Shown here piece after piece: positions 2,966-62,680 of a stretch of DNA of 64,000 nucleotides (position 1 is its first letter; each line of letters opens with the position of its first letter). The position numbers were made by a program, and so were the translations under genes. Source of the DNA: Octopus vulgaris (lineage: Eukaryota); NCBI GenBank assembly GCA_951406725.2, contig OX597815.1, forward strand, positions 67,084,001 through 67,148,000, in the 5' to 3' direction. The notes under the pieces were generated by a model that did no database searches, was not told where the DNA came from, and saw only the letters and a list, made by a program, of their open reading frames with translations.

Positions 2966-3249
2966 AATGATGCAACATGTTGCTTCATTGATATAGATAA
3001 GAGCTTTTACGTAATAACTAGAGCTACATATAGTTTAATAGAACAACCAGAAAACAAATACTTTGCATTTAAGATATTTCATGACGATCGTTTCAGTAAT
3101 CGATATGTATTAATTATTGATTATCGAATACTGAAACTTCGTAATGAAATATCTGAAATACCAACCAGCGATTTGTTTTATGCTTACTTTTTGCTATATA
3201 TGTTAAATATACTATCCTAAATTACACTATATTGTACTATAAAGCACAA

Positions 3250-6463: not shown

Positions 6464-7304
6464 CACACACACACGCACGCATCCCCCCAACACACATTGC
6501 GTTTTTTTTTCAATATTTATTTTTGTTTGCAATAGCCGGTTCTTTAGGTCAAACTATTGTATCTCCAGCTGCTTCAGATGCCAAGATATCAAAAATTGTC
6601 AAAGTGTAGTACAACAGTTTTGCTATGGAATGGGAAAACTATTATTTCGGTTTCTGACAACTAGCAGTTGTCTAGTTGTCTAGAACTGCTGACATCCCTG
6701 TCAGCAGCACTGTATCCTGCCATGACCATTGTTGACACCCCCCTCTCTCTATCAACTGGTTACAGACGAACACACAGACACAGTCTTTTCTGTTGCTTGA
6801 CCATTAATACCAGCTATATCTCTCTCCCTTGCTGCCTTCTAAACACACTGCCACACATACATAGACGCACACACACATACATGAAAGCAATTTCTCACAC
6901 TCAAACACTCTAGCACTCATTCTTAAAACAATTCAAATATTAACACCAGTCATACAGAATACATTCACACTCTTTGATTTTCCTGTACTCCCCTTCTGTT
7001 AACCGGATTTTGACCTTGAATTATCTCAACGGACTTTCTCGTCGGCTTTCACCCAGCCTGACGTCAACGCATATTGATAGACAGTTTGTGCCATTTATTC
7101 CATGGGCTCCTCGTGAGCGTTTGTCGAAAAGCTTGCTGTGCATTTTGTTTGAGAATTAAGTTCCTGGATTTTCCTGAAGAGAAGGCTGCAAAATGGGCTC
7201 CTTATTCAATCCGAATTAGGGACTTTGCAGCCTTTGAAACATATATAGAAAATAATAAAAAGAAATTTTGTTAAATCTTCGTTCAGCTCCATTTCTTCCT
7301 ACAC

Positions 7305-7401: not shown

Positions 7402-7442
<41 letters not shown>

Positions 7443-7685
7443 AGATAAGAAAATGGAGAAATACATCTAAATCAAATATCAATTACCAGATAATACTCAA
7501 TTACATACTTTATTAAACCACCACATAAGAGACTGTAGGGTTAAATATAAAAAGCAAAACAAATCAGTGTACATAAAGGAGTGTACATAAAAAAGTGTAC
7601 ATAAAAGAGTAATGTTATATAATAATTAGAATATATATAAAAAAGAATATAAATACAAGTAAATATAAATATATGTATAAATTAG

Positions 7686-7812
7686 ATCTTACAGCTGTTT
7701 CGGCCATGTCGATAATTATGTCTCATTTTACCAATATTAGCCCTTTATGGTTGGTCAATATATAGATATAAATGAGACATTAACAAAAATATCACAAGGC
7801 CTCTTCGGAGAT
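7686..7812 (-). ncRNA. Type I hammerhead ribozyme motif (C4 core variant, long stem II)
   Basis: Inverted copy of 8350-8476. Confidence 0.7.
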
Positions 7813-8349
7813 TATGTAATATAACACAGTCTACACATATACCCACATGGGTGTGGGTGCGTACCCACAATACAACATATATATATACATATGAGTGCAT
7901 ATACTCACACTCCTATACATATAAAAAATATACATTTACATAATGATATAAATAAATAATATAAATTAGTAAACATATATATGTGTTCCACACCCAATGT
8001 CTCAGTTTTTCGACTTAATATTGTGATAATAAACATACACAAATTAATACCTAGATGTAAATATACATAGTCAATAGTACATTATATTATATCATAATAG
8101 TTTCCAAAGTGTCATTAAAGTTAGTATCATTATCGTTGTCAATACAATTAATGTTATCATTGTTATCATTCATAATATTATTAATAACTCTAATTTATAT
8201 TATTTATTTATATCATTATGTAAATGTATATTTTTTTATATGTATAGGAGTGTGAGTATATGCACTCATATGTATATATATATATGTTGTATTGTGGGTA
8301 CGCACCCACATCCATGTGGGTATATGTGTAGACTGTGTTATATTACATA

Positions 8350-8476
8350 ATCTCCGAAGAGGCCTTGTGATATTTTTGTTAATGTCTCATTTATATCTAC
8401 ATATTGACCAACTATAAAGGGCTAATATTGGTAAAATGAGACATAATTATCGACATGGCCGAAACAGCTGTAAGAT
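8350..8476 (+). ncRNA. Type I hammerhead ribozyme motif (C4 core variant, long stem II)
   Basis: ATCT-CCGAAGA-GGCC...GGCC-GAAA-C-AGCT-G-TA^AGAT. Stem I ATCT/AGAT; stem III is the palindrome ACAGCTGT; stem II is extended by ATGTCTCATTT/AAATGAGACAT. Confidence 0.72.
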
Positions 8477-8895
8477 CTAATTTATACATATATTTATATT
8501 TACTTGTATTTATATTCTTTTTTATATATATTCTAATTATTATATAACATTACTCTTTTATGTACACTTTTTTATGTACACTCCTTTATGTACACTGATT
8601 TGTTTTGCTTTTTATATTTAACCCTACAGTCTCTTATGTGGTGGTTTAATAAAGTATGTGATTGAGTATTATCTGGTAATTGATATTTGATTTAGATGTA
8701 TTTCTCCATTTTCTTATCTTGTATTAGTAATTTGTGGTAAATCATTTTACCTTTGCCCAAATAATACAGTAAATGAATTGATTGCATCGCAATCATTAAC
8801 ATTTATGTATTAACTTTGTTGGGTACCTCACTAGCAGTATATTGGATATACGTTATCCCATAGAGGGTTGCATTTACAACCCCTATCTCAATTTG

Positions 8896-8964
<69 letters not shown>

Positions 8965-11125: not shown

Positions 11126-11193
<68 letters not shown>

Positions 11194-11388
11194 GCGAGCT
11201 GGCAGAATTATCACTACACCAGGCAAAATACTTAGCAGCATTTCGTTCATTTCTACGTTCTGAGTTCAAATTCCATCGATGTCGACTTTGCATTTCATCC
11301 ATTTCGGGGTCGATAAAATAAGTACCAGTTGAACACTGGGGTCGATGTAATCGACTTACTCCTCTTCCGAAATTGCTGGCCTTGTGTT
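11194..11388 (+). mobile_element. tRNA-derived SINE after (ATT)n
   Basis: 'gcgagctggcagaa...ttctgagttcaaattcc...gtcgactttg', same family as 2385. Confidence 0.85.
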
Positions 11389-15239: not shown

Positions 15240-15794
15240 TAAAAATAATAGTCGAGCAATCAGAAGGAAATGACGATGGAAAAGAATTGATAACGAAAGA
15301 AAGAACGAAGTTGAATCTATTAGCAGATTTAGACAAATTTCGATGTAATGCTTAAGTAAGTTTTCTCTTTCTTTCTCTAAATTTCATTTGTCTTTCTCTC
15401 TCTCTCTCACTTTCCTCTTTCCATTCTTTCTCTTTTACACACACACACACACACACACATACAATCTCTCTCTCTCTCTCTCGCTCTCTCTTTCACACAC
15501 ACACACACACACACACAAACCACACAAACATATATATATATATATATATATATCAACAATTATCCACTTTGTTTTCTCCAGTGAAAATATTTGACAGCTG
15601 AAAGTATTTTTTTCCTGCCTTTTATTAAGAAATCAGATTGTTAATCAAATAATGATTTTCTTTTGACTTGGCACAAAGTCAATTTTTGGAGTAAAATAGT
15701 TGACACGAAGAAAAATAGTAAAGTTCTTCTGTCTTCATAAAGTAATACAAATATTTCAAATTGAGGGGAAACTTTTATGTAAGAAAGAAGAAAA

Positions 15795-15830
15795 GTCTAA
15801 CGTTTCGGACGTCAGTCCTTCTTCGAGGAG
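15795..15830 (-). ncRNA. Degenerate minimal hammerhead at the 3' end of a probable Penelope-like remnant (~15740-16330)
   Basis: Minus strand CTCCTCGAAGA-A-GGAC-TGAC-GTCC-GAAACGTT-AGAC: perfect stem II and AACGTT palindrome, but the core is disrupted. Confidence 0.5.
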
Positions 15831-16569
15831 AGAGAGAGAGGGGGGAGGGAGGGAGGGAGAGTAAAGCTCAAGGAGACAGACAGAGTAAACAGATGGAAAG
15901 AGAGGGAGAAAAGCTGGTCTGAAATAATGTGAGTAGTGTGTAAGTTGTACGATGTAGGAGGAGGTAAATTGTGAGAGAAAAGTTATGTTTGATGTAGCAG
16001 CCAAATACAAACCAGTGATGGTTAGGTGAATGAAGTAGAAAATAAGGTCATAAGCTGAACAAGTCGGCAACTTATACATAAGTACGGTGAGTGGGAGACG
16101 AGGGAATGACCTGGGAGGATGATCGGAACCATGAATTGAAAAAGTTCGCCGAGAAAAATACACTTAAGGAATTTGTAAGTTGTGAAGAACAAGAATTGAT
16201 AGAGGTGGTCATTTCTGTAAGGATAAAATTGAAGAGAGAATGGCGACAGAAAAGTGTTGGGGTTTTTGATGAGAGGTGGAGATGGTGGCAAAAAGAGGTA
16301 TGAAATAATCCTTTTGACAGGGCCCATATATACGATCTTGTATCACAGTAGAGTGTAAGGAGTTAAGGACCGAAACACATAAGTGGGGTTTCTTCTATGG
16401 AGACCTTGTGCTGTTCACCTCTTCCCAGAGTTTCTTACTAACACGAGCAAAGAACAAAATGTATGAAATATTCCATTTCATAGAGGGCACACATATGGTC
16501 TTGGCCCTATATCACTAGGCAAAAACAATTTTGAACAAAAGATACTGCCTTCCTCAAGGAACATATATT

Positions 16570-17727: not shown

Positions 17728-18329
17728 CATGTATATATGTATGTGTGTGTGTGTATCAATATATACAATGATGAATTGAAAACCAATTTTCAAAATATAT
17801 CTATAATACCTTAAAATAAAACAAATTTTTCATTAGTATATATGTATATGCAGAGAGGGATTGAAAGAAATATTATGTTACATGGACATGGAGGCGATAC
17901 ATAAGGTGTATATATATATATGTAAATGGAGCTAAATGCAGGTGTTATTCAAATCTTTTTACTTCCGACAGAAGGAATAAGATGGTGTAAAACAATCTTC
18001 CCATCAGGGAAAGAAAGAAACCAAACACAGCAACAAGACATTTTAATATAATGTAATGACTGCGTATATGATGAAGGGAACGCTGGCAATTAAAAAAAAA
18101 CAAACAAACCGTTAGTAGATATAACGTCAAAGGTAATTTATAGAAAGAGAAGAAGGAGACAGAAAGAAATTAGCAGGAAACTAATAGTAGAGAGATATAA
18201 AACGATAGGTGAATAGCAATAAAGTTTAAAGGCTTGGGAGTAGATATATTTAGTGGAAGTGAAATGTAAGAAGACAGTCAAAGGTCGAATTTTATAGAAT
18301 AGCAGAAATCACTTATAGGAACTATAGAT

Positions 18330-19575
18330 ATATTTTTGCCAATGATTGCAGCGATAAACACGTTTTATAAACCTGTTTACAAGAGGCTTCTCTGAGAACG
18401 ACAGGAAATACATTTCACTGTTACAAAGCGGACAAAAAGATTTACCTTTATCATATGGAAAAGATATAAATAGAATATTACATTCCAAATCAAATTGTTT
18501 ATTATGATTCTTTAGGTACCAAATTAATTTACTAAGCCCAGTATTGTTACGTTTATTAATATGTCTAAATGACTAAATATTCTTCTGGACAACTGAGATG
18601 AAGAGCTACCTATATAAAAAGGACCTATATAAAAAAGATATCTGATCCGGAAGTAATTTTACATTGATAAATAGAGTTCTAGTCTTAGAATTACTGCAAT
18701 TGGAATCAGCATAAGAAAAACTAACACCGCTGCTATTATTTAAAGACTGGTTAGTGTTAATAAAATCAACGTTACTATTTTCATTAAGTGGATTTGTATT
18801 TAGCAACTAATTATTATGCTAATTATGCGAAGAGATGATTTGTGAAAGATTTTTTATGCTAGAAAACCCTATCCTGATTCGTTGTGAATTAATAATCGAA
18901 TAGTATCTTGAATTTCTTGGGAAATTCTTTTTTGTATCTTCACGAAACTAGTAAGGGGGGTTGGATTTGATCTGCTTACAATATGGAATTATTAAGCAAA
19001 CAGTTTTGCTTGGAAATACCTTGTTATTGGGGTAATTATCTTTAAAAGTACTCGATGTACCTTTATAATGAAAATCGGGTCTTAAATAACGGTTATCTCC
19101 CTTACGCTGCAAAATTGCATTACTCGATTTGGTGTTATTATTCGAAATAAAATTAATATTGCTAACATCGTTATGACTTGATTTCATGTTCTGATTAATA
19201 GAGGTAGAATTAATGTCAATAGTGTTAATATAGGTAATTTTTTCTTTATAGCCTGCTTTAAGTAAGGCAGTTATAAAATTCAGCTTTATCGTTGAAGATA
19301 TCAACATTAGCAGATAATCTAGAAAGCCTAAGTGAAATATTTCTAACTAAATTCTTTGTAATAGCCTTAGACTAATTACTGAGCTAATTAACCGCTAATA
19401 TATTTAAAATTAGTTGAGGATTTATGGTATGAGAAATATGATCCATTATGCAAGTTAAGGGTAATATCCAAAATGTTAGCTTTAGTTATATCATCAAAAA
19501 TAATTCTTAAGCGCATGTTTCGGAAAAATTTAACTAAGCTATTCTTAACCCATTGTAATTTTTAACTAGAAGCAT
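18330..19575 (-). mobile_element. Penelope-like retroelement relic (RT thumb + GIY-YIG endonuclease)
   Basis: Minus-strand pieces ANILDITLNLHNGSYFSYHK, LKAGYKEKITY, FYIGSSSSQLSRRI and TGLSKLIWYLKNHNKQFDL...GKSFCPLCNSEMYF. Confidence 0.8.
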
Positions 19576-19576
19576 T

Positions 19577-19651
<75 letters not shown>

Positions 19652-28294: not shown

Positions 28295-28491
28295 AAGTAA
28301 ATTATTTTTAATGATGGAACTCATAGTAGATAAAGCTATAACTAATAGTGTGTAGAATATTGGGTTATAGTTTTGTGTCTCACCGACAGCATTTGACTTT
28401 TACCATCCTAGGGGTTTTTAACCCAATATTCTATACGCAATTATTTATAGATTTATCTACTTCGAGGTCCATCGTTAAAAATAATTTGCTT
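28295..28491. repeat. Imperfect inverted repeat (~70-bp arms), MITE-like
   Basis: aagtaaattatttttaatgatgga...tagaatattgggtta pairs with taacccaatattcta...tccatcgttaaaaataatttgctt. Confidence 0.75.
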
Positions 28492-29154: not shown

Positions 29155-30555
29155 TGATGGCTGCCCCCTCGTTATCGAGTATGGCCATTGTACGAAGTTT
29201 AACTGTTATTGGTGCTATGATCGAATGTCACTTTTTAGCCCAGCTAAAGATCTACAATGTCTTGTACAGAATTGGCAACTAAAACCTTTACTGGAAATAG
29301 CCGGCTGTAGTTGTAACTGGGATTCATGTACCTTTGCATGTCGTTTAAGTCCTCCTGCCAAATTACACTCTCTTCCACATGCCCGACAGATATGATTAGT
29401 ATGGTGTGTTACACCACCACCAGTGGCCAGGTTGTCACTCATCTGTTTCGCTTTATGACTACGAAGATGACTCTTGAGTCCAGCTTTATTGAGGCAGGGT
29501 CTTGCACAGACACTGGATGTCAGCATCATAGGAAGACCCTTCCCATCTGGAAGTGTAACAGCGATGCCCTTCCTGACGTCCCTCCTTACTTTCTCATGTG
29601 CAACTCGAGATTTCTCAAAAGTAGCTGTCCCCTCGTGCACAATCCTTCTCCACCTGCTACGATCAATAGCTATGCCTTCCCACGTGTCAGGAGAGATGCA
29701 AGCATCTCTTAAGGAAGCCTTCAGCAAGTCCTTATACCTCTTTTTTGGTTTATGTGGGGGTCGTTCTCCTTTAGCTAACTCTCCATAAAAGAGTTGTTTT
29801 GGCATCCTTGTATCCTTCATCCTGACCAGATGACCACTCCATCTGAGCCTTTGCTTTAACAAAAGAGCTTCTATACTTTCACACCGAGAGCCTTCCAATA
29901 TTTCAAGATCACTGATGCGGTCCTTCCACTTAATGCCATAGATCCGTCTGAGACACATCTGATGGAAACGTTCCAGTTGTTTAAGGTGGTATCAATATGT
30001 GACCCACGTCTCGCAGGCATAGAGATGAGAAGGGAGCACACATGCCTTGTACACCTTTACCTTTGTCTTTCTGCATATGTCTCGCCGACTCCAGAAGCGC
30101 TTTTCTAGCCTTCCGAAAGCAACACTTGCTTTCCTAATTCTATATGGCATTTCATCATCCAAATTGCTATATCTATTAATAGTAATTCCCAGGTAGACAA
30201 ACTGATCAACTACATCAAGTCGTTTACCATACACATAGATATTTGGTACACTATACTGCTTACCAGGGCCAGGTTGGTACATGACAACAGTTTTCTTGAG
30301 ATTGACTATCAATGCTAAGGCAGTGCAAGCATCAGAGAATGCATTCAAAATGTGTTGCATATCAATCTGTGTGTGTGCTACTAGCTCACAATCATATGCA
30401 TACAAAAGATCTCTTATGATAGAGGTAAATACCTTTGTTTTTGCAGCAAAGCGTCCGATATTAAATATGCTGCCAGAGGTTCGATAATGGATGTAAACAC
30501 CGTATCTGCAGTTTCTGAATGCAATACAGAACACCATCGCAAAATATATGGCAGT
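29155..30555 (-). mobile_element. RTE-clade LINE, 5'-truncated, with C-terminal C2H2-like fingers
   Basis: IRDLLYAYD (YADD), FVYLGITI, LYACETW, RLRWSGHLVRM..RMPKQLFYGEL; short 3' stem-loop; (TACA)n on both sides. Confidence 0.92.
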
Positions 30556-30582
30556 ACATACATACATACATACATACATACA

Positions 30583-30618
<36 letters not shown>

Positions 30619-30666
30619 TATTTAAATGTTGAAGTGAAAACTACAAACATCTTCCACGCTGCAATT

Positions 30667-34352: not shown

Positions 34353-34400
<48 letters not shown>

Positions 34401-34434
34401 TTAATAATAACAATAATAATAATAATAATAATAA

Positions 34435-35100
34435 TCCTATCTACTAAAGGCACAAGGCCTGAAGTTGTAGGGAGGGAACTAGTCGATTATATCGACCCCA
34501 TTGTTTCACTGGTACTTAATTTATCAACCCCAAAAGATGAAAGGCAAAGTCGACTTCAGCAGAAATTGAACTCAGAACGTAGCAAATTTTTTAATAATAA
34601 TAATAACGACAATCCTTTCTACTAAAGGTACAAAACCTGAAATTTGTGGGGAGGGTTCTGGTCGATTCAAAAGGATGAAAGGCCAAGTCGCCCCCGGCGG
34701 TATTTGAACTCAGAACATGAAGGCAGACGGTGTTGCATTCACAATCGTATGATTGTGGTTTCGATTTCTGGACAAGGGGATGCGTTGTGTTCTTGAGCAA
34801 AACATTTTATTTCACATTGTTTCAGTTCACTTACCTACCTTCGATGGACCGGCATTCCTTCTAGGCCCATAACACCACTTTCTCAGATTCTGGCTTGGGA
34901 AAGGCTTTTTTTTTTTATTAACGAAGAAATGAAAGCGATGAGGTGACAGATTCGTTTACATACCGGATAAAATGCTTAGCGGCACGTCTTTTCGTTCTGA
35001 TTCAATTCCGCCGAAGTCGATTTTGCTTTTTGTCTGGGGTCGATGTAAGTGATTAAACCTTCCTCACCAAATTCCAGCCCGTGTGCTTATTGTAGAAAGA
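34435..35100. mobile_element. Cluster of tRNA-derived SINE fragments (both strands)
   Basis: Repeated 'gatgaaaggcaaagtcgac...tgaactcagaac' family matches. Confidence 0.75.
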
Positions 35101-36134: not shown

Positions 36135-38247
36135 TCCGCAGCCGCAATTCTAGGGATAGGATCCCAATGACCGATATTGAATCGGTGTTTAGCTGAAAAT
36201 GGTCATATACAAATGTACAATAATGACGGAAACTAATAACATCATTTACATTGGATGCTCTGTACATTTGAAAAAAACGCATAGATAACCATTTTTCGTC
36301 TTTTAAAGCCAACAGTACTTCATTATCTATGAAAACCAGGGAACTCAAGGATAGTAATAGTGAATTTAGCCTAAAATGGTAGAGCTCAACCATGCAAAAA
36401 TAGCCGATATGGATGTGAATTATGCTGTATGGAGATTTATGAAAATTTAAAATATAGAGATAAGCAAAACATAATAAATAATAAATTAGACCTTAGAGTA
36501 TCTTGTGTACATAAGATTACCCGTACCTTCAATTACTTTAGAAGCAGATAATAATAAGCACATCATACTATGATTTGGTAGTATGAGTTATCCGGGTTGT
36601 CATATTATTCATAACATACCCTCTATTATCTAAAAATATATGTAATATTGCTCTCTAGTAACCCCTAACCATTTTAATCTGCATTCCTTCAATATTTATA
36701 TTACATATATTCCCCTTCGGTACTAGGATTTTCTTCCCCTATAGTTATAATATATAAATTTGCAACGGATTACTAAATCTTGCGCCTCCCCTAAGTATAA
36801 GGTATACTCCCTAGGAATTGTTATTATCCTACATAAATTACTGTCTCTGATATATTTTACAAATATTTTATAAACCCATTTCCAAAGATATCTTTATCTT
36901 TATTTATTCTTTAATTAACATTTGTCATGCATACCTTGACTTATCCTAATTCTTCATGTCTCCCTTTCTTTTGTTTTATCTCGGTTATACCTTTTATATC
37001 ATTCGCAATGAAATATTTTATAAATTCTTTATAAAAAATTCTTATATAAAAATATTTTCTTTTATTTTTATATTTTTTATATCTTATATTATTAAATTTT
37101 TATATATATCTATATACCCTCCCATATACTTGTGTAGCTTTTACAGATTGTTGAAAGGTTTATAATTTCTTTAAAACTCACTGTATAATACAATATTATA
37201 TTTATATTTATAATTACACTTTATGCTTCATAAACTTTATAAATTTTCTATATAGATGTGATATTTTTATACTTTCTTATATCCTTTCATAATTTTTTCA
37301 TAGTGCCTGTAATCGATAAATAATTTTTTTTTACAAGATTTAGTATACCGCTAATTTAATTACTCCTTACATTCGATTTCATATTTTCAATATCTTATAC
37401 TGTAATGAGGATAATAATCCTTGTTTTGATTTAATATATACTATGTATTCCAATACAAATGATAACTTAGTTCATTTATAAATTCATTGTGGATTGGTTT
37501 CATCATGACCACCAGAAGAATATGTTTAGGAAAGGCCTTATGAACTTTCTCTTATATATCAAAGTACCCCATTATTAAGTTTTAAGTTTAATTTCTATCC
37601 TTTTCATATATATTGATCTAAAATTCTTTTCTAAATTTAATATAATAAATTTGCTAAGTTATGAATTACTACATCCCGTATCCTTCAGTTCTAATTCCCA
37701 CCCTTAGAGCTTATTTTTACCTATTTCATTTTTCACTATATTCCCCTTTTATTTAATAATCTAAATAAGTACTAGCTACCTCTATCCTTCCTTCTTCTAG
37801 TTATCACCTCTTCCCCATCAGTGATTCTCTCACTAGCAGCTCTGAGTCATATCCTTTTATGTAGTTAAAGCTAGATATATGATCCCTGTAAAATAAGTCT
37901 GGGAAGTTGTCTAAGATTAATTTATTTGTCACCATCAACTAGAAGATTGCTGACAACTCCCAATGGATTTAACTCTAAATGGTTGTAGATTATATGCTGC
38001 ATAAAATCATATAAATAAAAATAATAATAAATATAAATAACTATCTCACCACTCCTATATCTTGACCCCCACTATTTTCCTCTGCCACTCTCTAAATTAT
38101 TGTAGGCTTAATATGCGTTATTCTCTAAATTCATTTTGCCATAAATATAATATAAGGAAACACTGTAATCACTTTGGTTTCTAGTACTGATATAAATTTG
38201 CTAAAAGTTTGTTTATCCTTTATGTTGGTAATCTCTATGGCCATCTA

Positions 38248-38474: not shown

Positions 38475-38518
<44 letters not shown>

Positions 38519-38520
<2 letters not shown>

Positions 38521-38710
38521 CGGAGATGTACTCGCATAGCAAGTGATTTGATCTGAGATCGTGCGCTGAAACGAAAACAATTGCAGTGTGGAAGGTGTTT
38601 GTAAGCCATTTAAGAAACACACAAAAGCCGTTCGATTCACTTCAACATTTAAGTTTAATTTGTCAAAATATTTTCGTCGCTAAAATCCGCGACCTGTTTA
38701 CTGACAAAAA
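38519..38710 (-). mobile_element. Penelope-type terminal repeat, second locus of the 41953-42275 family
   Basis: Near-identical to the reverse complement of 42093-42275; in (TA)n; HHR-like fold at 38659-38708 with core GTAAACA. Confidence 0.75.
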
Positions 38711-38732
38711 TATATATATGTATGTGTGTGTG

Positions 38733-41952: not shown

Positions 41953-42275
41953 TTGCAGCGTGGAAGGTGTTTGTAAGCCATTTAAGAAACACACAAAAAC
42001 CGTTACATTCACTTCAACATTTAAATTTAATTTGCCAAAATATTTTCGTCGCTTTGAGACCGCGACCTGTTCACTGACAAAAATATCGTGCTAACAGGTC
42101 GCGGTCTCAAAGCGACGAAAATATTTTGACAAATTAAATTTAAATGTTGAAGTGAATCTAACGGTTTTTGTGTGTTTCTTAAATGGCTTATAAACACCTT
42201 CAACGCTGCAACTGTTTTCGTTCCAGCACACGATCTCAGATCAAGTCACTTGCTATGCAAGTACATCTCTGTAAC
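41953..42275 (+). mobile_element. Penelope-type fold-back (arms ~41953-42071 / 42093-42211) plus 3' tail, in (TA)n
   Basis: Near-perfect inverted repeat with a short spacer; the right arm continues into a tail shared with 38519. Confidence 0.8.
42031..42081 (-). ncRNA. Type I hammerhead motif with swapped G3:C8 core
   Basis: Minus strand TTTGTCA-GTGAACA-G-GTCGC-GGTCTCAAA-GCGAC-GAAA-ATAT-TT^TGGCAAA: 7-bp stem I, 5-bp stem II, palindromic stem III. Confidence 0.65.
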
Positions 42276-42375
42276 TACATATATATTTATATATATATAT
42301 ATATATGTATATTGGTAAAAACAGTAAGATAACAAAAGAAAGAAAGAGACCTCAATATTATGTAAATAGAGGAAA

Positions 42376-43789: not shown

Positions 43790-44365
43790 AACCTAGCTGA
43801 ACTGTTAGCACGTCGCATAAAATGCTTAGCCGTATTTCTTTAGGGTTTTTACGTTCTGAGTTCGAATTTCGAACTCAGTAAAATAACTTATTACTAATCA
43901 CGGGGGAAAATCTTCATGAAATATATTGGATTCTAATTTTGGCACAAGGCTAGCAACTTGTGAGAGAGGGCTAGTTAATTACATCGACCCCATCAGTGCT
44001 CAACTGGTACTTATTATACTGAGCCCGAAAAGATGAAAGGCAAAGTCGATCCTGGCGGCATTTGAACTCAGAACGTAACGACGGATAAAATGCCGCTAAG
44101 TATTTAGCTTGGTGCACTAACGTTTCTGCCAGATCGCCACCTTCATCTTGATTAGATATATTGATTTCAAATTTTGGCACAAGACCAGCAGGTCTGGTAG
44201 AGGGGTAAGTCGGTTACTTCAATCCCAGTGTTCATCTGGTACTTATTTTATCGATCTCGAATGGATGAAAGGCAAAGTCAACCTTGGCGGAATTTAAATA
44301 CAGACGAAATGCTGCTAAGCACTTTGCCCGGCGTGCTAACAATTCTGCCGGGTCTCTGCCTTCAT
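43790..44365. mobile_element. Three tRNA-derived SINE copies
   Basis: One + head (43790-43875) and two - copies (43930-44145, 44165-44365). Confidence 0.75.
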
Positions 44366-44463
44366 CTTGAGACCAAAGAAGTGCTTTTTACTCTCCAATG
44401 TGAAAATGCGACAGGAATTATTTCCAACCTAATATATAACTCATGGCAGTGAAGAGTGAATTA

Positions 44464-46117
44464 CACTGGTCAACCGCCAATTTTCATCAGGGATATTATA
44501 TGGTGTTTTATATGTAGTTTTGTCCGCAGATTTCAAAAATGTAATCGGTTTCCTTCGATCAGGCACAGTTTTTCTGATGAGATAATGGCCTTCAGATGTC
44601 TGACGAAGATGTATTTCCCGAAGAAAATATTACTGCTGTCGAAAACACCGAAGTGGGTGCAGATTTCACGATTGAAAATGAAGACGTACCACAGAAATTT
44701 TCTCAAGGAGAGTTAAATGATTTAGTTAGAGACTTGTCATTGTCGAAGGATAAAGCTGAACTATTAGCCTACAAGAAAAGTGTCTGCTTAAGAAAGATGT
44801 TTGTATTGCTCATTTCAGGAAGAGAAATAGGGGTCTGACTTCATGCTTCTCTGTTGATGGACCACTTTGTTTCAGTAATAACACTGATGAGTTATTTCGC
44901 TGTTTGTTCCAGGAGCATGTTCCAGCTGAATGGCGCTTATTCATTGATTCATCTAAGAGAAACCTCAAAGCAGTACTACTACACAACGGCAATAAGAAAC
45001 CATCCATTCCCATGTGTACATGAAGGAGTGTTATGAATACATGCAAGTACTCTTCAATGCCATAAAGTATACAAACTACAGCTGGAAAATATGTGGAGAC
45101 TTGAAGGTGATTGGAATGTTGATGGGAATGCAATCTGGGTTCACCAAATATTGTTGCTGGTTATGCCTATAGGACAGTTGTGCAACTAACAAGCACTATA
45201 TGCAATCAGAGTGGCCTTTGCGAAAATCATATGAGCCAGGAGTTTCTATCGTCCAGAGTAAGCCACTTTTAAACCCAGAAAATGTTCTTCTTCTCCCTCT
45301 TCACATAAAGCTTGGCCTCATGAAAAAATTCATGAAGACACTTGTCAGGAAAAGCTCAAAAGGTTTTGAATATGTGAAGGCCAAATTTCCAAAAATCTCC
45401 GTGGCAAAACTGAAGGAGGGCGCATTCATAGGTCCGCAGATAAAAGAACTCCTGAAGGACAACCACTTCCTCACAGAACTGGATGAGATTGAGCTTAAAG
45501 CCTGGGAATCCTTTAAATGGCTCTGTGAAAATTTACCAGGCAACAAGAGATCTCTAGAATTTAGAAATGGAGTGAAATGTCTTCTAGACTCCCACGCTGC
45601 AATGGACTGTTGGATGTCGCTAAAAGTCCATTTCCTTGATTCACATCTGGACTTTTTTGCAGAGAACCTTGGAGCAGTGTTTGATGAACAAGGGGAACGC
45701 TTTCATCAAGATATTGCATCGATGGAACAACGTTATCAAGGATTTTGGAATGCAAGAATGTTAGCTGACTACTGTTGGATGTTATACAGGGATGAACCTG
45801 AGACAAAACACCATAGAAAGTCCAAATCCCAAAGATTTAAGTTGATATGCATTAGAGTGTTTTATAACTTATTTGTACACAACAATTTTAATTTTGTACA
45901 ATAAAAAGCCATGAAATGATCGTATCTTGTATTCAATATAATTTATATAGACATGCTTTACGTATCCTATAAGTGAAATCAACAGGTATCATTAACATGA
46001 AAATGTGACCTGATAGAGGAAATCGGACTTCAGATTCGTAATCAGCATCAAGAATTAACCCAGAAAAGTCAACCAGCAACTCTAATGATTAAAAAAGTTT
46101 CATTTTGTTGACCAGTG
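44464..46117 (+). mobile_element. Chapaev3-like (CMC) DNA transposon, decayed
   Basis: TIRs CACTGGTCAAC / GTTGACCAGTG, flanks TTA/TTT; transposase motifs WRLFIDSSKRNLKAVLLHNGN, ICGDLKV, LPLHIKLGLMK and DEQGERFHQDI. Confidence 0.85.
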
Positions 46118-47609: not shown

Positions 47610-50600
47610 GGCAAAGAAGAACGAAGAGTCAAAGAAAAGAAAGAAAAACATTCGAAAATGCTGATATGAAATGAAGGATCCTCAATAGAAGCTACAGGAG
47701 TTGGAAGGGCAAAAGCAGGAGCACTTGCAAATTCTACGGTGATGATGGTGCAAACTGTCGCTTTGCACACCGGAAGCCCTGTCAAAACAACATGGGCCCC
47801 AGACAACACTCCCTTCCCCGAAGAGGACAAAAGAAAAGGTACCAAAGAAGTAAAAATAGCACACTGTCTACTTCCGAAAGACGGTATGCAGATGTAGTGC
47901 GCGGCCCAGCAAACGGCCGACTTTAGCCAGGTGTGAAAAGGGTGGCAGCTGAACTACAATCTTTTTTGTGCATAGCACAAAAGATTGTGCAGCAATTGAC
48001 CTGGCTTCAAACCCAAGCATGGAACTACACCCGCCACCACACAAGGCCACCACCAGCAACAGATACAGGATCGCCACCACTAACATCAACACACTCATCA
48101 CAAAGATATTTCTTCTGAATGTAGGAGGGCTGTTGCTTGGCAGCTGTAAATCAAAAATCTCATTCCTGAGAGACCTTGCAGCATGCAATCAAACTTTATG
48201 CATGGTACTTGTAGAAACGCATCTTAGACCTGATATAGGGGATGCTGAAATACATATACCACAATATGTTGTCATATGCTCAGATAGAAAGGAGAGGAGC
48301 CATGGTGAAGTTGCTGTGTACATCTGAGAGGACCTCACGCCCCAGGTCCTGTTGTCATATTCTAATTCAGTATGCGACACTCAAATTTTACGCATAAGAC
48401 AACTTAATATTGTTATATGTACTACATATTGCCCACCAGATGCTCCGAGTCATACAGACAAATTTGAAGACTGTCTAGCAAAGATAAGAGAAGTTATCAT
48501 CAAACTGAAACAACACATTAGTGTATTCCTTTTGGGCGAATTAAACTTCCCAAACATGGGATTCTCCCATGAATGACACACCAACAGCAAGCACATGTAG
48601 AGTCCCTGCTTTACCTTACCAATGCCTCTTTCATAGAACAAGTCATGCTGCAACCAACCAGGGTAAATAATATACTAGACCTCTGCTTCACAAACAATAT
48701 AGACATTAATAATGTTAGTGACACCGACTATGATCTCGGATCACAATATAATAGAGCTGTCTATATATGAACCAAAAGCTCCAGCAGACATACAGTCTAT
48801 ATGAAGCACCCAAAGTCCCTCCAAGCTAAACTTTCACAAAGCAAATTTGAAGCTGATTGGGAAAGAGATCCTCAAACAGGATTGGCCAAAATGTCTCCCC
48901 ACACCAGACATTGACATGAAACACTAACATTTCATGCCCATAATATAAACCATATGTGACAAATCTGTCCCATTGTGCAAGGCCAACATACACCAAAACA
49001 GGATCCTCAGGGAAAGGAAGATTCTTATGAGACGGACGAAGATTGCGAACCGTCTGAGCAAACATCCCAAAAGTGGCGAGAAGTCTCGTCTGGAGAGAGT
49101 GCTATTGAAAATTGAGAAACGTCTGCATCAGTCTCATGAAAAGGAGAGAGAAAATAAAGAAGCTTGGGTTATAGAAAATATCGAGTCAATCAAACCCTAA
49201 AACTTTCTTTAAGCTTGCCAAAGAAACAGCCTCAATGCGCCATAAGATAGGACCCCTCTTCCAAAAAGATGGCTCCCTTACAGGAAACCCCACGAGGGTA
49301 AGTGAAATACTGAACGAACAGTTCCAAAATGTGTTCACTACACCGCTGGAACACAGACAAGTGAACAAACCAGCGGATTTCTTTGCCACATTACCTAAAA
49401 CCAAAAAGGTTATAAAAATTGAACGCATAAACATTGAAAAAGATGTAATGCTGGCCATAGATGAGGTTGACACAAACTCAGCGGCTGGCCCGAATGGGTT
49501 TCCAGCGGTCCTACTCAAATCATGCAAGCGAACTCTTACAAATCCACTGTAGCTTCTCTTCCTTGCAAGTGGTAAGCTCCCAGACAAACCGATGGAAGGA
49601 ATAATATGCCCTATCAATGAAGGAAGAGGCATAGCAGATGCTAAAAATTATAGGCTTATCTCTCTGACCTCACACATCAGTAAAGTCATGGAACGAATAG
49701 TCTGCAAGAAACTAATCACGTTCCTAGAAGAAAATGACCTGCTGACTGACACCCAGCATGAATTTCGACCAGGTAGAAGCTGTCTGACACAGCTCCTGCA
49801 ACACTACGACTGGGTGTTAAAACAGCTGTTGAATGACTCAAGCGTGGATGTGATAAATCTCGACTTTGCAAAAGCCTTTAAAAAAGTTGACTATGGTTGG
49901 TATGATATGTCACAAACTGCACGATCTCGACATATGCAGAAACCTTGGAGAATGGCTGCACAACTTTCTAAAGCATAGACGTCAGGCAGTAGTAGCCAAT
50001 GAAGCCACCTATAAGGTAACGCAAATAGCAAGTGGTGTTCCACAGAGTACTGCCTTGGGGACACTGCTGTTCATTGTGGTCCTCTCAGACATGCCCTCTA
50101 CTGCACGGATAGCTACCCTTGCTAGCTATGCAGATGACACAAAAGTCTCTCAGACAATACAAAATCCTGGAATTATTGTACATCTGCAACGGGAGTTGGA
50201 CGCAATATGCAGGTGAGCTGAGGACAGCAACATGCTGTTTAATGCAGGTAAATTCCAGGCCCTACGCTATCAACACAAAGCTAAACGACATGCAGACAGG
50301 ATATACTGGCCCAGGAGGAATTGAAATCCCTGAATCAAAATCAGTGCGTGACCTGGGTATTGACATGAGCAATGATGCATCTTTCCAAGCGCATATTGCC
50401 AATTTGGTAATAAAATGCAGTTGACTGGCTGGATGGATCCTCCGTACTTTCAAAACAAGAGAAAAGGAGACATTAATGATCCTTTGGAGGACATATGTTC
50501 TCAGCTGATTAGACTATTGCTCCCAACTATGGTCATCACACAATAAAAAATCCACAGCAGAACTCGAAGCAATCCAACGAAGCTACACTAAGAAATTCGT

Positions 50601-51107
50601 CTCAATGCAACATGTCAGCTACTGGGAAAGACTTAAACAATTAAAACTCTTCTCCTTGGAATGAAGGCAGGAGAGATATGCAGTGATATACATCTGGAAA
50701 ATTATAGAAGGCCTTGTACCAAACTTTGGCATTGAAAGTTATTCAAACTGCAGAACGGGGCGCCACTACATAGTGCCAAAGATCCCAGCATCGCCATCAA
50801 AATACAGGACCAGATGCTGCAACAGCTTGGGCTTCTAAAGGCCCACAGCTCTTTAATATCCTTCCAAAATGCCTGAGAGACCTGCATGGTGTGGATGTAA
50901 GTCTCTTTAAAACAAAACTGGATCGCTTCCTGTTACGGGTTCCAGACGAGCCTACCTCATGGTAGGAAACATAGATGAGGGCAGCAGCATCAAACACCCT
51001 CATTGACCAAATGCCACATATTAGAGGAGGTAGCAAATAATGGTGTAGCTCAGTCAATGGTGATGCTCCAACATGACCGCAGCTTTGCAGCTGAGACATT
51101 AAAAAAA
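47610..51107 (+). mobile_element. Near full-length CR1/L2-group LINE, decayed
   Basis: APE domain (LNV.GL, ETHL, NNILDLCF), RT (YRLISLT, QHEFRPGRSC, LDFAKAF, SGVPQ, YADDTK), 3' A-run at ~51100; many stops. Confidence 0.92.
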
Positions 51108-51307
51108 ACACACACATATATATATACATAATGCGCATACACTAACATTCATATAGATAAAGTGTTGCGAACTCGGTATCATAAAGATATCGCTTTGTAC
51201 ACTGATATTGGGTTTTGTATATGGTAGTAAGTTAGAGCATGTATGCATACATGCAGATATATATGCGTAATATTACAATATATGTATGTAATGATACATA
51301 CACACAC

Positions 51308-51387
<80 letters not shown>

Positions 51388-51439
51388 TATAAATATATGA
51401 AAGAATGGAGTTGAACGACGAATTAACAAAATTCCTTTA

Positions 51440-51522
51440 TTTTCGACATATGTTTCGAAGGCTGCATATTCCTAATTGCGAAGGAATAAGGAGTATATTA
51501 TGCCGCTTTCTCATCAGGAAAA
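51440..51522 (-). ncRNA. Type I hammerhead ribozyme (canonical core)
   Basis: Inverted copy of 51664-51746. Confidence 0.82.
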
Positions 51523-51663
51523 GCAAGGAACTTATGTCAACATCAAGATGCACAAAAAACTTTTAGATGACTGGTCACAGGGAGCCCATTTTCACTATGG
51601 GCTCTGTGTGAGTAGTCATCTAAAAGTTTTTTGTGTATCTTGATGTTGACATAAGTTCCTTGC

Positions 51664-51746
51664 TTTTCCTGATGAGAAAGCAGCATAATATACTCCTTAT
51701 TCCTTCGCAATTAGGAATATGCAGCCTTCGAAACATATGTCGAAAA
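51664..51746 (+). ncRNA. Type I hammerhead ribozyme (canonical core)
   Basis: TTTTC-CTGATGA-GAAAGCAGCATA...TATGCAGCCTTC-GAAA-C-ATAT-G-TC^GAAAA; predicted cleavage after 51741; palindromic stem III ACATATGT. Confidence 0.85.
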
Positions 51747-51969
51747 TAAAGGAATTTTGTTAATTCGTCGTTCAACTCCATTCTTTCATATATTTATATT
51801 TAAAAAAAAACATACAAATTTCCACACGAAAGCACGTAACTTCAAACGTGTCTTCTCTGATGTGAATTTGCTACCCAGGTATCGGTTAACCGAATTATCC
51901 ATAACAAGATAATTCATTCAACTACTCAAATATTCATATATATATATATATATATGTATGTATATATAA

Positions 51970-52029
<60 letters not shown>

Positions 52030-52049
52030 AACACATGCACACACAATAG

Positions 52050-52245
52050 TAGAATAGTTATCGCACCGGAATAATGCTAGTAAGCATTTTTCCCGTTTTT
52101 GAGTTCAAATGCATCCGAGGTTCACCTTACCTTACCTTTCGTTCTTTCGGGTCGATAAAATAAGAACTAGTTGAATACTAGGGTCGATGTAGTCGATTTA
52201 TCCCTTCCCCGAAATTGCTGGCCTGTACCAAAATTTGAAACCAAT
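52050..52245 (+). mobile_element. tRNA-derived SINE (degraded)
   Basis: 'gagttcaaat...ggtcgataaaataag...ggtcgatgtagtcga...gctggcctgtaccaaaatttgaa'. Confidence 0.7.
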
Positions 52246-52321
52246 ATATATTTAAAAACATATGCATTTCCACATCCACACACGCGCATATGTATGCGTG
52301 TATATGTGTGCGTGTGTGTGT

Positions 52322-55671: not shown

Positions 55672-55723
<52 letters not shown>

Positions 55724-55749
55724 ATAATAATAATAATAATAATAATGAT

Positions 55750-55965
55750 AAACCTTTCTACTATAGGCATAAGGTCTGAAATTTTGGGGGAGAAGATAAG
55801 TCGATTACATCGACCCCTATGCATAACTGGTACTTATTTCATCGATCCCAAAAGGAAGAAAGGCAAAGTCGACCTCATTGGAATTTTGAACTCAGAATGT
55901 AAAGATGGATGAAATACCACTAAACATGTCGCCCGGTGTGCTAACGATTCTGCCAGTTCGCCTTA
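55750..55965 (-). mobile_element. tRNA-derived SINE
   Basis: Reverse complement of the 2385 family. Confidence 0.8.
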
Positions 55966-55993
55966 TTATTACTATTTATTTATTTATTTATTC

Positions 55994-59010: not shown

Positions 59011-59359
59011 TTAAAATGCATTTTAATATGTAAACGTAGCAAAACTACTTTTAAATGTACATAAAAGCTAACACTTTTTACTACCATCTTAAGATCACGC
59101 TATCATCTTATCACCAAACTACTTTTTAAACAAACTTTTAATTTTCTTATGGTTTGAAAGACATTCTCTAGAACAATCCTATGTGCAAATCTAAAAACAT
59201 GGCAGTTATCAACCACCCTAGCTATAATACTGACCTGAATTTCTAACTTGTTTATTGATGTCTCTCGATGAGACTTGGAGTCAACTTTTATAAGCACAAA
59301 GCAAAATCCGAACGTATGGCAGCAGCAGCGATGACAACAACGACAGCAACAACAACGAT

Positions 59360-60120
<761 letters not shown>

Positions 60121-62437: not shown

Positions 62438-62680
62438 AAAAGAAAGAAAATATTTACATTTCCATCAAAACAACCTACTGGTTTTAATCGATTTAAAAAA
62501 AAATCATTTAATCATGCTGAAAGAGAAAGGAAAACAAATTGAAATAAATTAAATTAATCTTTCTTGGTATCTGATGCCACGAAAAATTAATTTAAAGATT
62601 AATTTAATGACTAAATTATTTCTAACAGGATTGAAACCAGTAGCATATTTTGATAAAAATGTAAATATTTTCTTTCTTTT
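62438..62680. repeat. Imperfect inverted repeat (~50-bp arms)
   Basis: aaaagaaagaaaatatttacatt...ctactggttttaatc pairs with gattgaaaccagtag...aatgtaaatattttctttctttt. Confidence 0.7.

Follow-up and report, generated by a model that had tools for sequence, protein, structure and literature searches.

Positions 51387-51799 of the 64,000-nt stretch of Octopus vulgaris DNA analysed here (hereafter the window) form a palindrome with one hammerhead motif in each arm. Self-comparison aligns a left arm at 51387-51589 (-) with a right arm at 51597-51799 (+), with six mismatches over 203 positions and the 7-nt loop TTTCACT (51590-51596) in between. The longest exact self-complementary match measures 117 nt, compared to at most 16 nt in 200 shuffles. 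These data confirm the palindrome of about 410 bp with a 7-nt loop given in a preliminary description of this DNA; its extent requires amendment: the arms are as described, yet 51799 is not where the element stops, and the right copy runs on to ~51935. The additional ~135 nt (51800-51935, +) resemble a 'tail' and are present on the right copy only, whereas the left arm ends in (TA)n without such an extension. The insertion is framed by a (TA)n run on the left (51312-51381) and a (TA)n-rich run on the right (51936-52018), and TA sequence also lies beside the two related copies at 7.1 kb and 18 kb that are discussed below. Target-site duplications are unreadable within the flanking TA runs, a difficulty that has also been described for (TA)n targets of Penelope-like elements (PLEs; PMC8557442). 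No ORF of 100 aa and no match to a PLE protein profile are found inside 51387-51935, and the extension taken as the start of an ORF likewise gives no PLE-profile match (best E 0.64). At the centre, CAT-TTTCACT-ATG (51587-51599, +) constitutes a native micro inverted repeat, of which the loop and the CAT are the element's own. Both arms are 5'-truncated copies of the 3' end of an element, the right one in sense and the left one, a pLTR fragment, inverted.

The two type I hammerhead motifs face outward. On the right (51664-51746, +), the core CTGATGA occupies 51669-51675, GAAA 51730-51733, and helix III 51733-51740, with cleavage predicted after C51741. On the left (51440-51522, -), CTGATGA is located at 51517 and GAAA at 51456, helix III is formed by the palindrome ACAUAUGU, and cleavage is predicted after 51445. 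Both arms use GTC as cleavage triplet, and CTGATGA, GAAA, and GTC follow in hammerhead order on each strand, exactly as had been reported. The previously noted 5-bp stem I (TTTTC/GAAAA) is present as well and continues, past a 2x2 internal loop, with 7 bp more. Stem II is extended as stated, spanning 12 positions, but includes two non-pairs per arm: A.C, together with A.A on the right or G.A on the left. The possibility that helix II has decayed in this palindrome was considered and is not established, as A at 51679 is the majority letter in three and G at 51682 in all four of the sequencing runs compared below. Helix III comprises only 2 bp, closed by AUAU, within ACAUAUGU, which marks the motifs as dimer-type hammerheads rather than self-sufficient monomers. 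Rfam yields no family at gathering anywhere in the window, and its 13 matches at E<=10 within 51300-51900 include no hammerhead family. A candidate microRNA precursor, MIR172, scored 37.3 bits against a gathering threshold of 70 and was rejected, given that the hairpin alone accounts for the match.

Hammerheads of this kind are known from the pLTRs of metazoan PLEs (Cervera and De la Pena, 2014; PMC4209133), which share the type I topology, the 5-bp helix I, the long helix II, and the palindromic helix III of the motifs reported here. Helix II is however longer in the octopus motif, with 12 positions and a structured 30-nt loop when compared to 7-8 bp in schistosomes, and the unpaired base that precedes G10.1 in the described motifs is missing (PMC4209133). 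In the same work, pairs of minimal hammerheads were found on opposite strands at distances of 100-700 bp, and motifs lying scattered were assigned to truncated PLEs.

The arms belong to an abundant repeat family. A diverged solo copy (7091-7301, +; 74% identity) with the core CTGAAGA is followed by (TA)n; all 12 positions of its helix II pair, one of them through a compensatory change, while its cleavage triplet now reads AUA. At the place equivalent to the fold-back centre, this copy has CCAT-TTATTCC-ATGG. Part of the stretch is contained in 20 of the 24 listed sequencing runs (9 studies, 5 coded organisms), and four of the 24, namely X1, X2, X4, and X8, were compared. At 85% likeness, 51540-51930 is matched by 2736 contigs in X1, 1927 in X2, 1301 in X4, and 133 in X8, pointing to high copy number in each of the three large runs (1301-2736 contigs; organisms A, B, and C). 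In all four runs, contigs of other copies span 51799 with at least 31 letters on each side, which shows 51800-51935 to belong to the element; this part is present on the right copy only. As loose contig ends further indicate, other copies contain short stretches near 51837 and 51902 that are missing from the right copy. Towards the centre, similarity to contigs of other copies begins at 51587, upstream of which these contigs are non-palindromic (a loose end in X2, 5 contigs). Among the eight joints listed, three link the inverted arm with the sense copy at other breakpoints, four are strand changes, and one is a 41-nt skip, each being represented by one contig with 23-42 letters on its short side at 85% likeness; the joint at 51571-51644 could equally derive from a tip deletion of the 51387-51799 palindrome. 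A tandem relationship between the extension and DNA upstream of the 7.1-kb copy was rejected, as its score of 35 remains below that of an unrelated tile (38). Scans with the family's hammerhead pattern returned no match in viral contigs and none in metagenome contigs. We found no paper on the arm family in a search of mainly non-subscription literature, and the family may already be annotated.

Comparison with these copies also reveals the common origin of the two arms. At 51690, 51744, and 51790 both have A, a letter that is in the minority in all four runs, the others accounting for 59-94% of the summed contig depth, which is not copy number. Three minority alleles common to both arms argue for one template and one insertion. 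At 51636 and 51682, on the other hand, the family's majority letter is found in the left arm and a private transition in the right. Editing of A to I was tested as a source of the arm differences and is not supported, since A>G places in X8, which may be RNA in contig form, are the same as in the DNA runs, and the polarised changes are C>T and G>A.

Assembly and library preparation are well known to produce artefactual palindromes, and the locus could in principle be a chimera created when one solo copy was folded back. In line with this explanation, the centre is spanned with 31 letters on each side by none of the listed contigs, so that the exact centre is taken from the assembly alone. A chimera would, however, hardly be expected to differ at 6 of 203 positions between its arms, with the left arm holding the majority allele and the right arm a private transition at two of them. 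The asymmetry is moreover as in PLE insertions, and two other palindromes of the window have spacers or asymmetric centres. We therefore regard an artefact as highly improbable; the palindrome is real and correctly placed.

The high copy number, the lack of an ORF, and the presence of a hammerhead might also suggest a non-autonomous unit, of retrozyme-like or foldback/MITE-like character, in which the entire palindrome is mobilised. Retrozymes have been argued to derive from the pLTRs of PLEs, and non-LTR retrozymes resemble the sequence studied here in being non-coding, PLE-related, and equipped with a type I hammerhead (bioRxiv 10.64898/2026.07.22.740005). Yet, retrozymes are organised as head-to-tail tandems, whereas the palindrome is inverted and thus offers no second sense hammerhead in cis, and head-to-tail tandem units are missing at the locus. 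Other copies are solo (7091-7301) or non-palindromic upstream, and inverted joints occur at varied places, all of which indicates that what moves is something other than the palindrome. We consequently give this alternative hardly any weight.

Instead, the arm appears to represent the 3' end of a PLE encoding an ORF with reverse transcriptase (RT) plus a GIY-YIG endonuclease at the C-terminus, an assignment that is indirect and made through one remote homologue. This homologue (17930-18050, -), which is internally deleted, terminates a decayed PLE on its 3' side and is followed by TA repeats. Its core starts with CTGATGG at 18007, while its helix II has lost the 3' half and GAAA is gone as well. 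The alignment to the arm scores 52.5, a value reached by none of 1000 shuffles, and 56 in comparison to a background maximum of 41.5 over 614 tiles, 22 of the 636 tiles having been excluded for their proximity to known copies; nhmmer assigns it an E-value of 0.045 only. The 7.1-kb copy, in turn, gives no alignment to 17930-18050 above chance (115/1000 shuffles as high). The homologue sits ~270 nt behind the stop of a broken, 5'-truncated Hydra-type PLE ORF (18312-19582, -), which extends from the end of the RT through the C-terminal endonuclease and abuts (TA)n at 19579.

The assignment of this ORF is based on a profile of 119 full-length relatives, which matches 18312-19582 in order with its segments 356-419, 416-459, and 496-707 (E-values of 1.4e-8, 1.4e-5, and 3.6e-20, respectively). 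Among the 119 relatives, RW[KR] is present in 117, DK[TS] in 118, CxCx(4-6)C in 116, RDD in 119, CxxC..E in 118, and CxH in 116; features of this type are characteristic of Hydra-clade PLEs (Craig et al., 2021; PMC8557442), whose protein motifs the relatives of the 18-kb remnant thus share. An exhaustive homologue search with an 87-aa piece of the ORF recovered 319 matches at E<=0.001, and a word-index search with the same piece gave nine candidates, none of which was confirmed. Pfam names neither the 18-kb remnant nor 12 relatives, none of which is called RT, and Atlas provides matches of 0.96-0.99 to clusters in which some members have HTH_animal, DUF8422, or GIY-YIG. In metagenomes, 465 pattern matches to relatives of the ORF were obtained and none was confirmed; scans of viral and metagenome contigs did not return the parent element of the arm's exact subfamily. 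Most likely, this parent element belongs to the Hydra clade. The C-terminus of a Hydra-type endonuclease has left another remnant at 36196-36542 (+; tblastn to E 1.2e-7, profile E 0.002), and no match to the arm lies behind it.

Hydra-clade PLEs have a hammerhead near the 3' end, associate with (TA)n, and occur with an inverted copy (PMC8557442), as seen at the octopus locus. Inverted 5'-truncated copies, one-sided tails, and (TA)n targets have all been described for PLEs, and Penelope-13_HM carries a hammerhead on both strands (PMC8557442 and its supplement). The extension reported here is longer, with ~135 nt compared to 30-40 bp for the PLE tail, and by eye the helices of the Hydra-1_oBim motif differ from those of the arm motif (PMC8557442). 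The sequence GAAACATATGT has no match in the text of the PMC8557442 supplement, in which line breaks can hide matches.

The layout of the palindrome recurs in the window. Three unrelated families with hammerhead motifs form head-to-head units within 64 kb (51387-51935, 7438-8900, and 41953-42290), each with outward arms, a one-sided extension, and TA flanks. In the second family, the palindrome at 7438-8724 has arms of 535 bp that are 98.7% alike, with motifs at 7808 (-) and 8354 (+). Their core reads CCGAAGA, U4 being changed in both arms, and is combined with the helix III palindrome CAGCTG and a helix II domain of 100 nt. The unit has a spacer of ~220 nt, and its right side is ~175 nt longer before (TA)n is reached; it constitutes a younger head-to-head pair of another family. 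The third palindrome (41953-42211) combines arms bearing a hammerhead motif, the helix III of which is AAATATTT, with a right side longer by ~65 nt. The core of its left arm, at 42074 (-), is GTGAACA, in which G3-C8 replaces the usual C3-G8, whereas the right arm starts inside the core. The left motif further consists of a 5-bp helix II, the AAATATTT palindrome, and helix I TTTGTCA/TG(A/G)CAAA. Given that a solo copy of this family (38483-38716, -; core GTAAACA at 38701) is also available, the right extension of ~65 nt can be attributed to the third-family element. A swap to U3-A8 has been described in hammerheads (PMC4209133), and C3G/G8C has been used as a partial rescue (PMC11167929). The motif at 41953-42290 is possibly the more unusual ribozyme of the window.

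The preliminary description had further proposed that a transcript from either direction contains one sense hammerhead plus its antisense, and that hairpin formation competes with self-cleavage. Nearest-neighbour folding, in which tertiary contacts are not considered, agrees with the first statement: read-through RNA is predicted to form a long hairpin of -345 (+) or -335 (-) kcal/mol. Competition, on the contrary, is not what the predictions suggest. Owing to the outward orientation of the motifs, polymerase coming from either side would copy the antisense arm before the sense arm, and in predictions for growing transcripts 22/24 up to 161/164 right-arm bases are paired to their mirror. Folding of the ribozyme within the full palindrome is predicted to cost 123-127 kcal/mol, which together with the order of transcription implies that read-through RNA has no 'on' state. 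According to these models, the ribozyme is permanently off, rather than switched, in a hairpin of 203 bp.

For the arm alone, the predictions are different in kind. Helix III comprises 2 bp, helix I forms with a probability of 0.02-0.05, and the active fold lies 5-6 kcal/mol above the ensemble, so an active monomer with a stable helix III is not the dominant predicted species. The arm alone is hence predicted to be mostly misfolded and to need a partner for helix III. The self-duplex of ACAUAUGU is predicted at -7.0 kcal/mol, and by a rough estimate an active dimer is favoured over two monomers by ~4 kcal/mol (standard state), which makes weak, concentration-dependent cleavage of the isolated arm plausible. 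In an earlier assay of PLE motifs, a monomer remained uncleaved and dimers were cleaved weakly (PMC4209133); dimers were likewise studied by Lunse et al., 2016, as summarised in a review (PMC6765202). One PLE hammerhead required its protein, and RNA-seq yielded no reads ending at its site (PMC11167929). Among the hammerhead motifs detected in the window by pattern scans, the two arms are the only ones to combine an unchanged core with the GUC triplet. The isolated arm is therefore the best motif to assay, in line with the earlier ranking of this palindrome as the window's best candidate for demonstrable activity.

The same data bear on the claim of a 'built-in off switch', and more generally on the possibility that the palindrome has been selected as a regulatory device, either by keeping the ribozyme off in a hairpin RNA or by providing double-stranded RNA (dsRNA) that silences the family. 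The stability of the predicted read-through hairpin would fit such a function, and small RNAs from PLEs exist in a rotifer (PMC3846280). None of the 24 variable arm positions falls on the 19 positions of the core and helix III, but this is not significant (P=0.08), and core invariance would bear on the parent family and not on the palindrome locus. Against this function, the folding models give read-through RNA no 'on' state, and unrelated families display the same layout with one core changed in both arms and one right arm that starts within the core. Differences between the arms are uncompensated, and the two whose direction family depth reveals (51636 and 51682) are ordinary right-arm transitions. 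The idea of a dsRNA trigger is weakened by a mollusc survey in which no dedicated endo-siRNA pathway was found (PMC12479628), and a search of mainly non-subscription literature produced no paper on PLE palindromes as siRNA triggers. Selection for regulation is thus very unlikely in our view; the recurrence of the layout in two unrelated families, along with its description as a PLE insertion product, makes a regulatory explanation unnecessary.

A more speculative scenario would have transcription start at the centre or close to it, giving rise to two outward, near-identical sense hammerheads that could dimerise in trans via ACAUAUGU and cleave, with the choice of start site acting as a switch and the many palindromes of the genome serving as a self-made source of dsRNA against their own PLE families. 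If so, read-through from outside would yield a dead 203-bp hairpin and start-site choice would be the real switch, yet we see very little prospect of this being the case. The loop (51590-51596) contains TCACT, five letters that have been called initiator-like in an Adineta pLTR (PMC3846280) and are too short to count as evidence. A decayed LINE-like element on the plus strand (47950-50980), with endonuclease-like and RT frames (RVT_1, E 1.5e-10 at 49553-49978), ends ~400 nt to the left of the palindrome and is a possible source of read-through.

Taken together, the locus is an ordinary head-to-head PLE end fragment and a further copy of a published type. Very probably, it arose by a single insertion of the pLTR of an abundant EN+ PLE, likely of the Hydra clade, into (TA)n, with fold-back generating the head-to-head arrangement as a neutral by-product. 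In such a process, the protein of the element would nick TA-rich DNA and reverse transcription would begin close to the RNA's 3' terminus, two activities that have been demonstrated in vitro for a lizard PLE (PMC11167929). Synthesis would halt after ~350 nt at the native CAT-N7-ATG micro-hairpin, and the 3' end of the cDNA might fold back and copy itself for ~200 nt to produce the palindrome. The second arm would stop short of the extension, which would leave the latter on one side, and the ~3% difference between the arms would have accumulated after insertion. The hammerhead would be inherited cargo of the element's 3' end, presumably working as a dimer via ACAUAUGU in tandem element RNA. The palindromic arrangement itself would thus be an insertion by-product that is now neutral.

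A precedent is provided by Penelope of Adineta vaga, in which head-to-head palindromes have been read as products of self-priming (Arkhipova et al., 2013; PMC3846280). Its inverted pLTRs are likewise arranged head-to-head with the tail on one pLTR; however, the inverted pLTR flanks a whole ORF in A. vaga, whereas both copies in the octopus comprise the last 200-350 nt. The locus alone matters little, being a further copy of a published PLE insertion product, and its importance would rise only if palindromes were transcribed, processed, and conserved. Since 64 kb contain clean centres of three families, this is nevertheless a good genome for studying head-to-head inversions of PLEs, and the arm offers an intact dimer-type hammerhead suited to assay.

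Several additional repeats were noted in the window. Older imperfect palindromes with arms that are 67-74% alike are located at 28295-28491, 62438-62680, and 3045-3185; they contain no convincing hammerhead and may be decayed PLE fold-backs or MITE-like. On the minus strand, a frame at 15756-16163 has an ending that resembles a PLE end by eye, with GAAAC at ~15806 and no Pfam match, and a transposon-like frame with weak C2H2 zinc-finger matches occupies 29215-30621, which we take to be an RTE-like LINE end. A transposon-like frame of 243 aa without Pfam match is present at 45173-45904 (+). Finally, a SINE-like repeat of ~200 nt occurs in many copies (70-88%) on both strands, including those at 2406-2965, 11129-11386, 34357-34667, 43910-44370, 52097-52249, 55674-55974, and 59359-59971.
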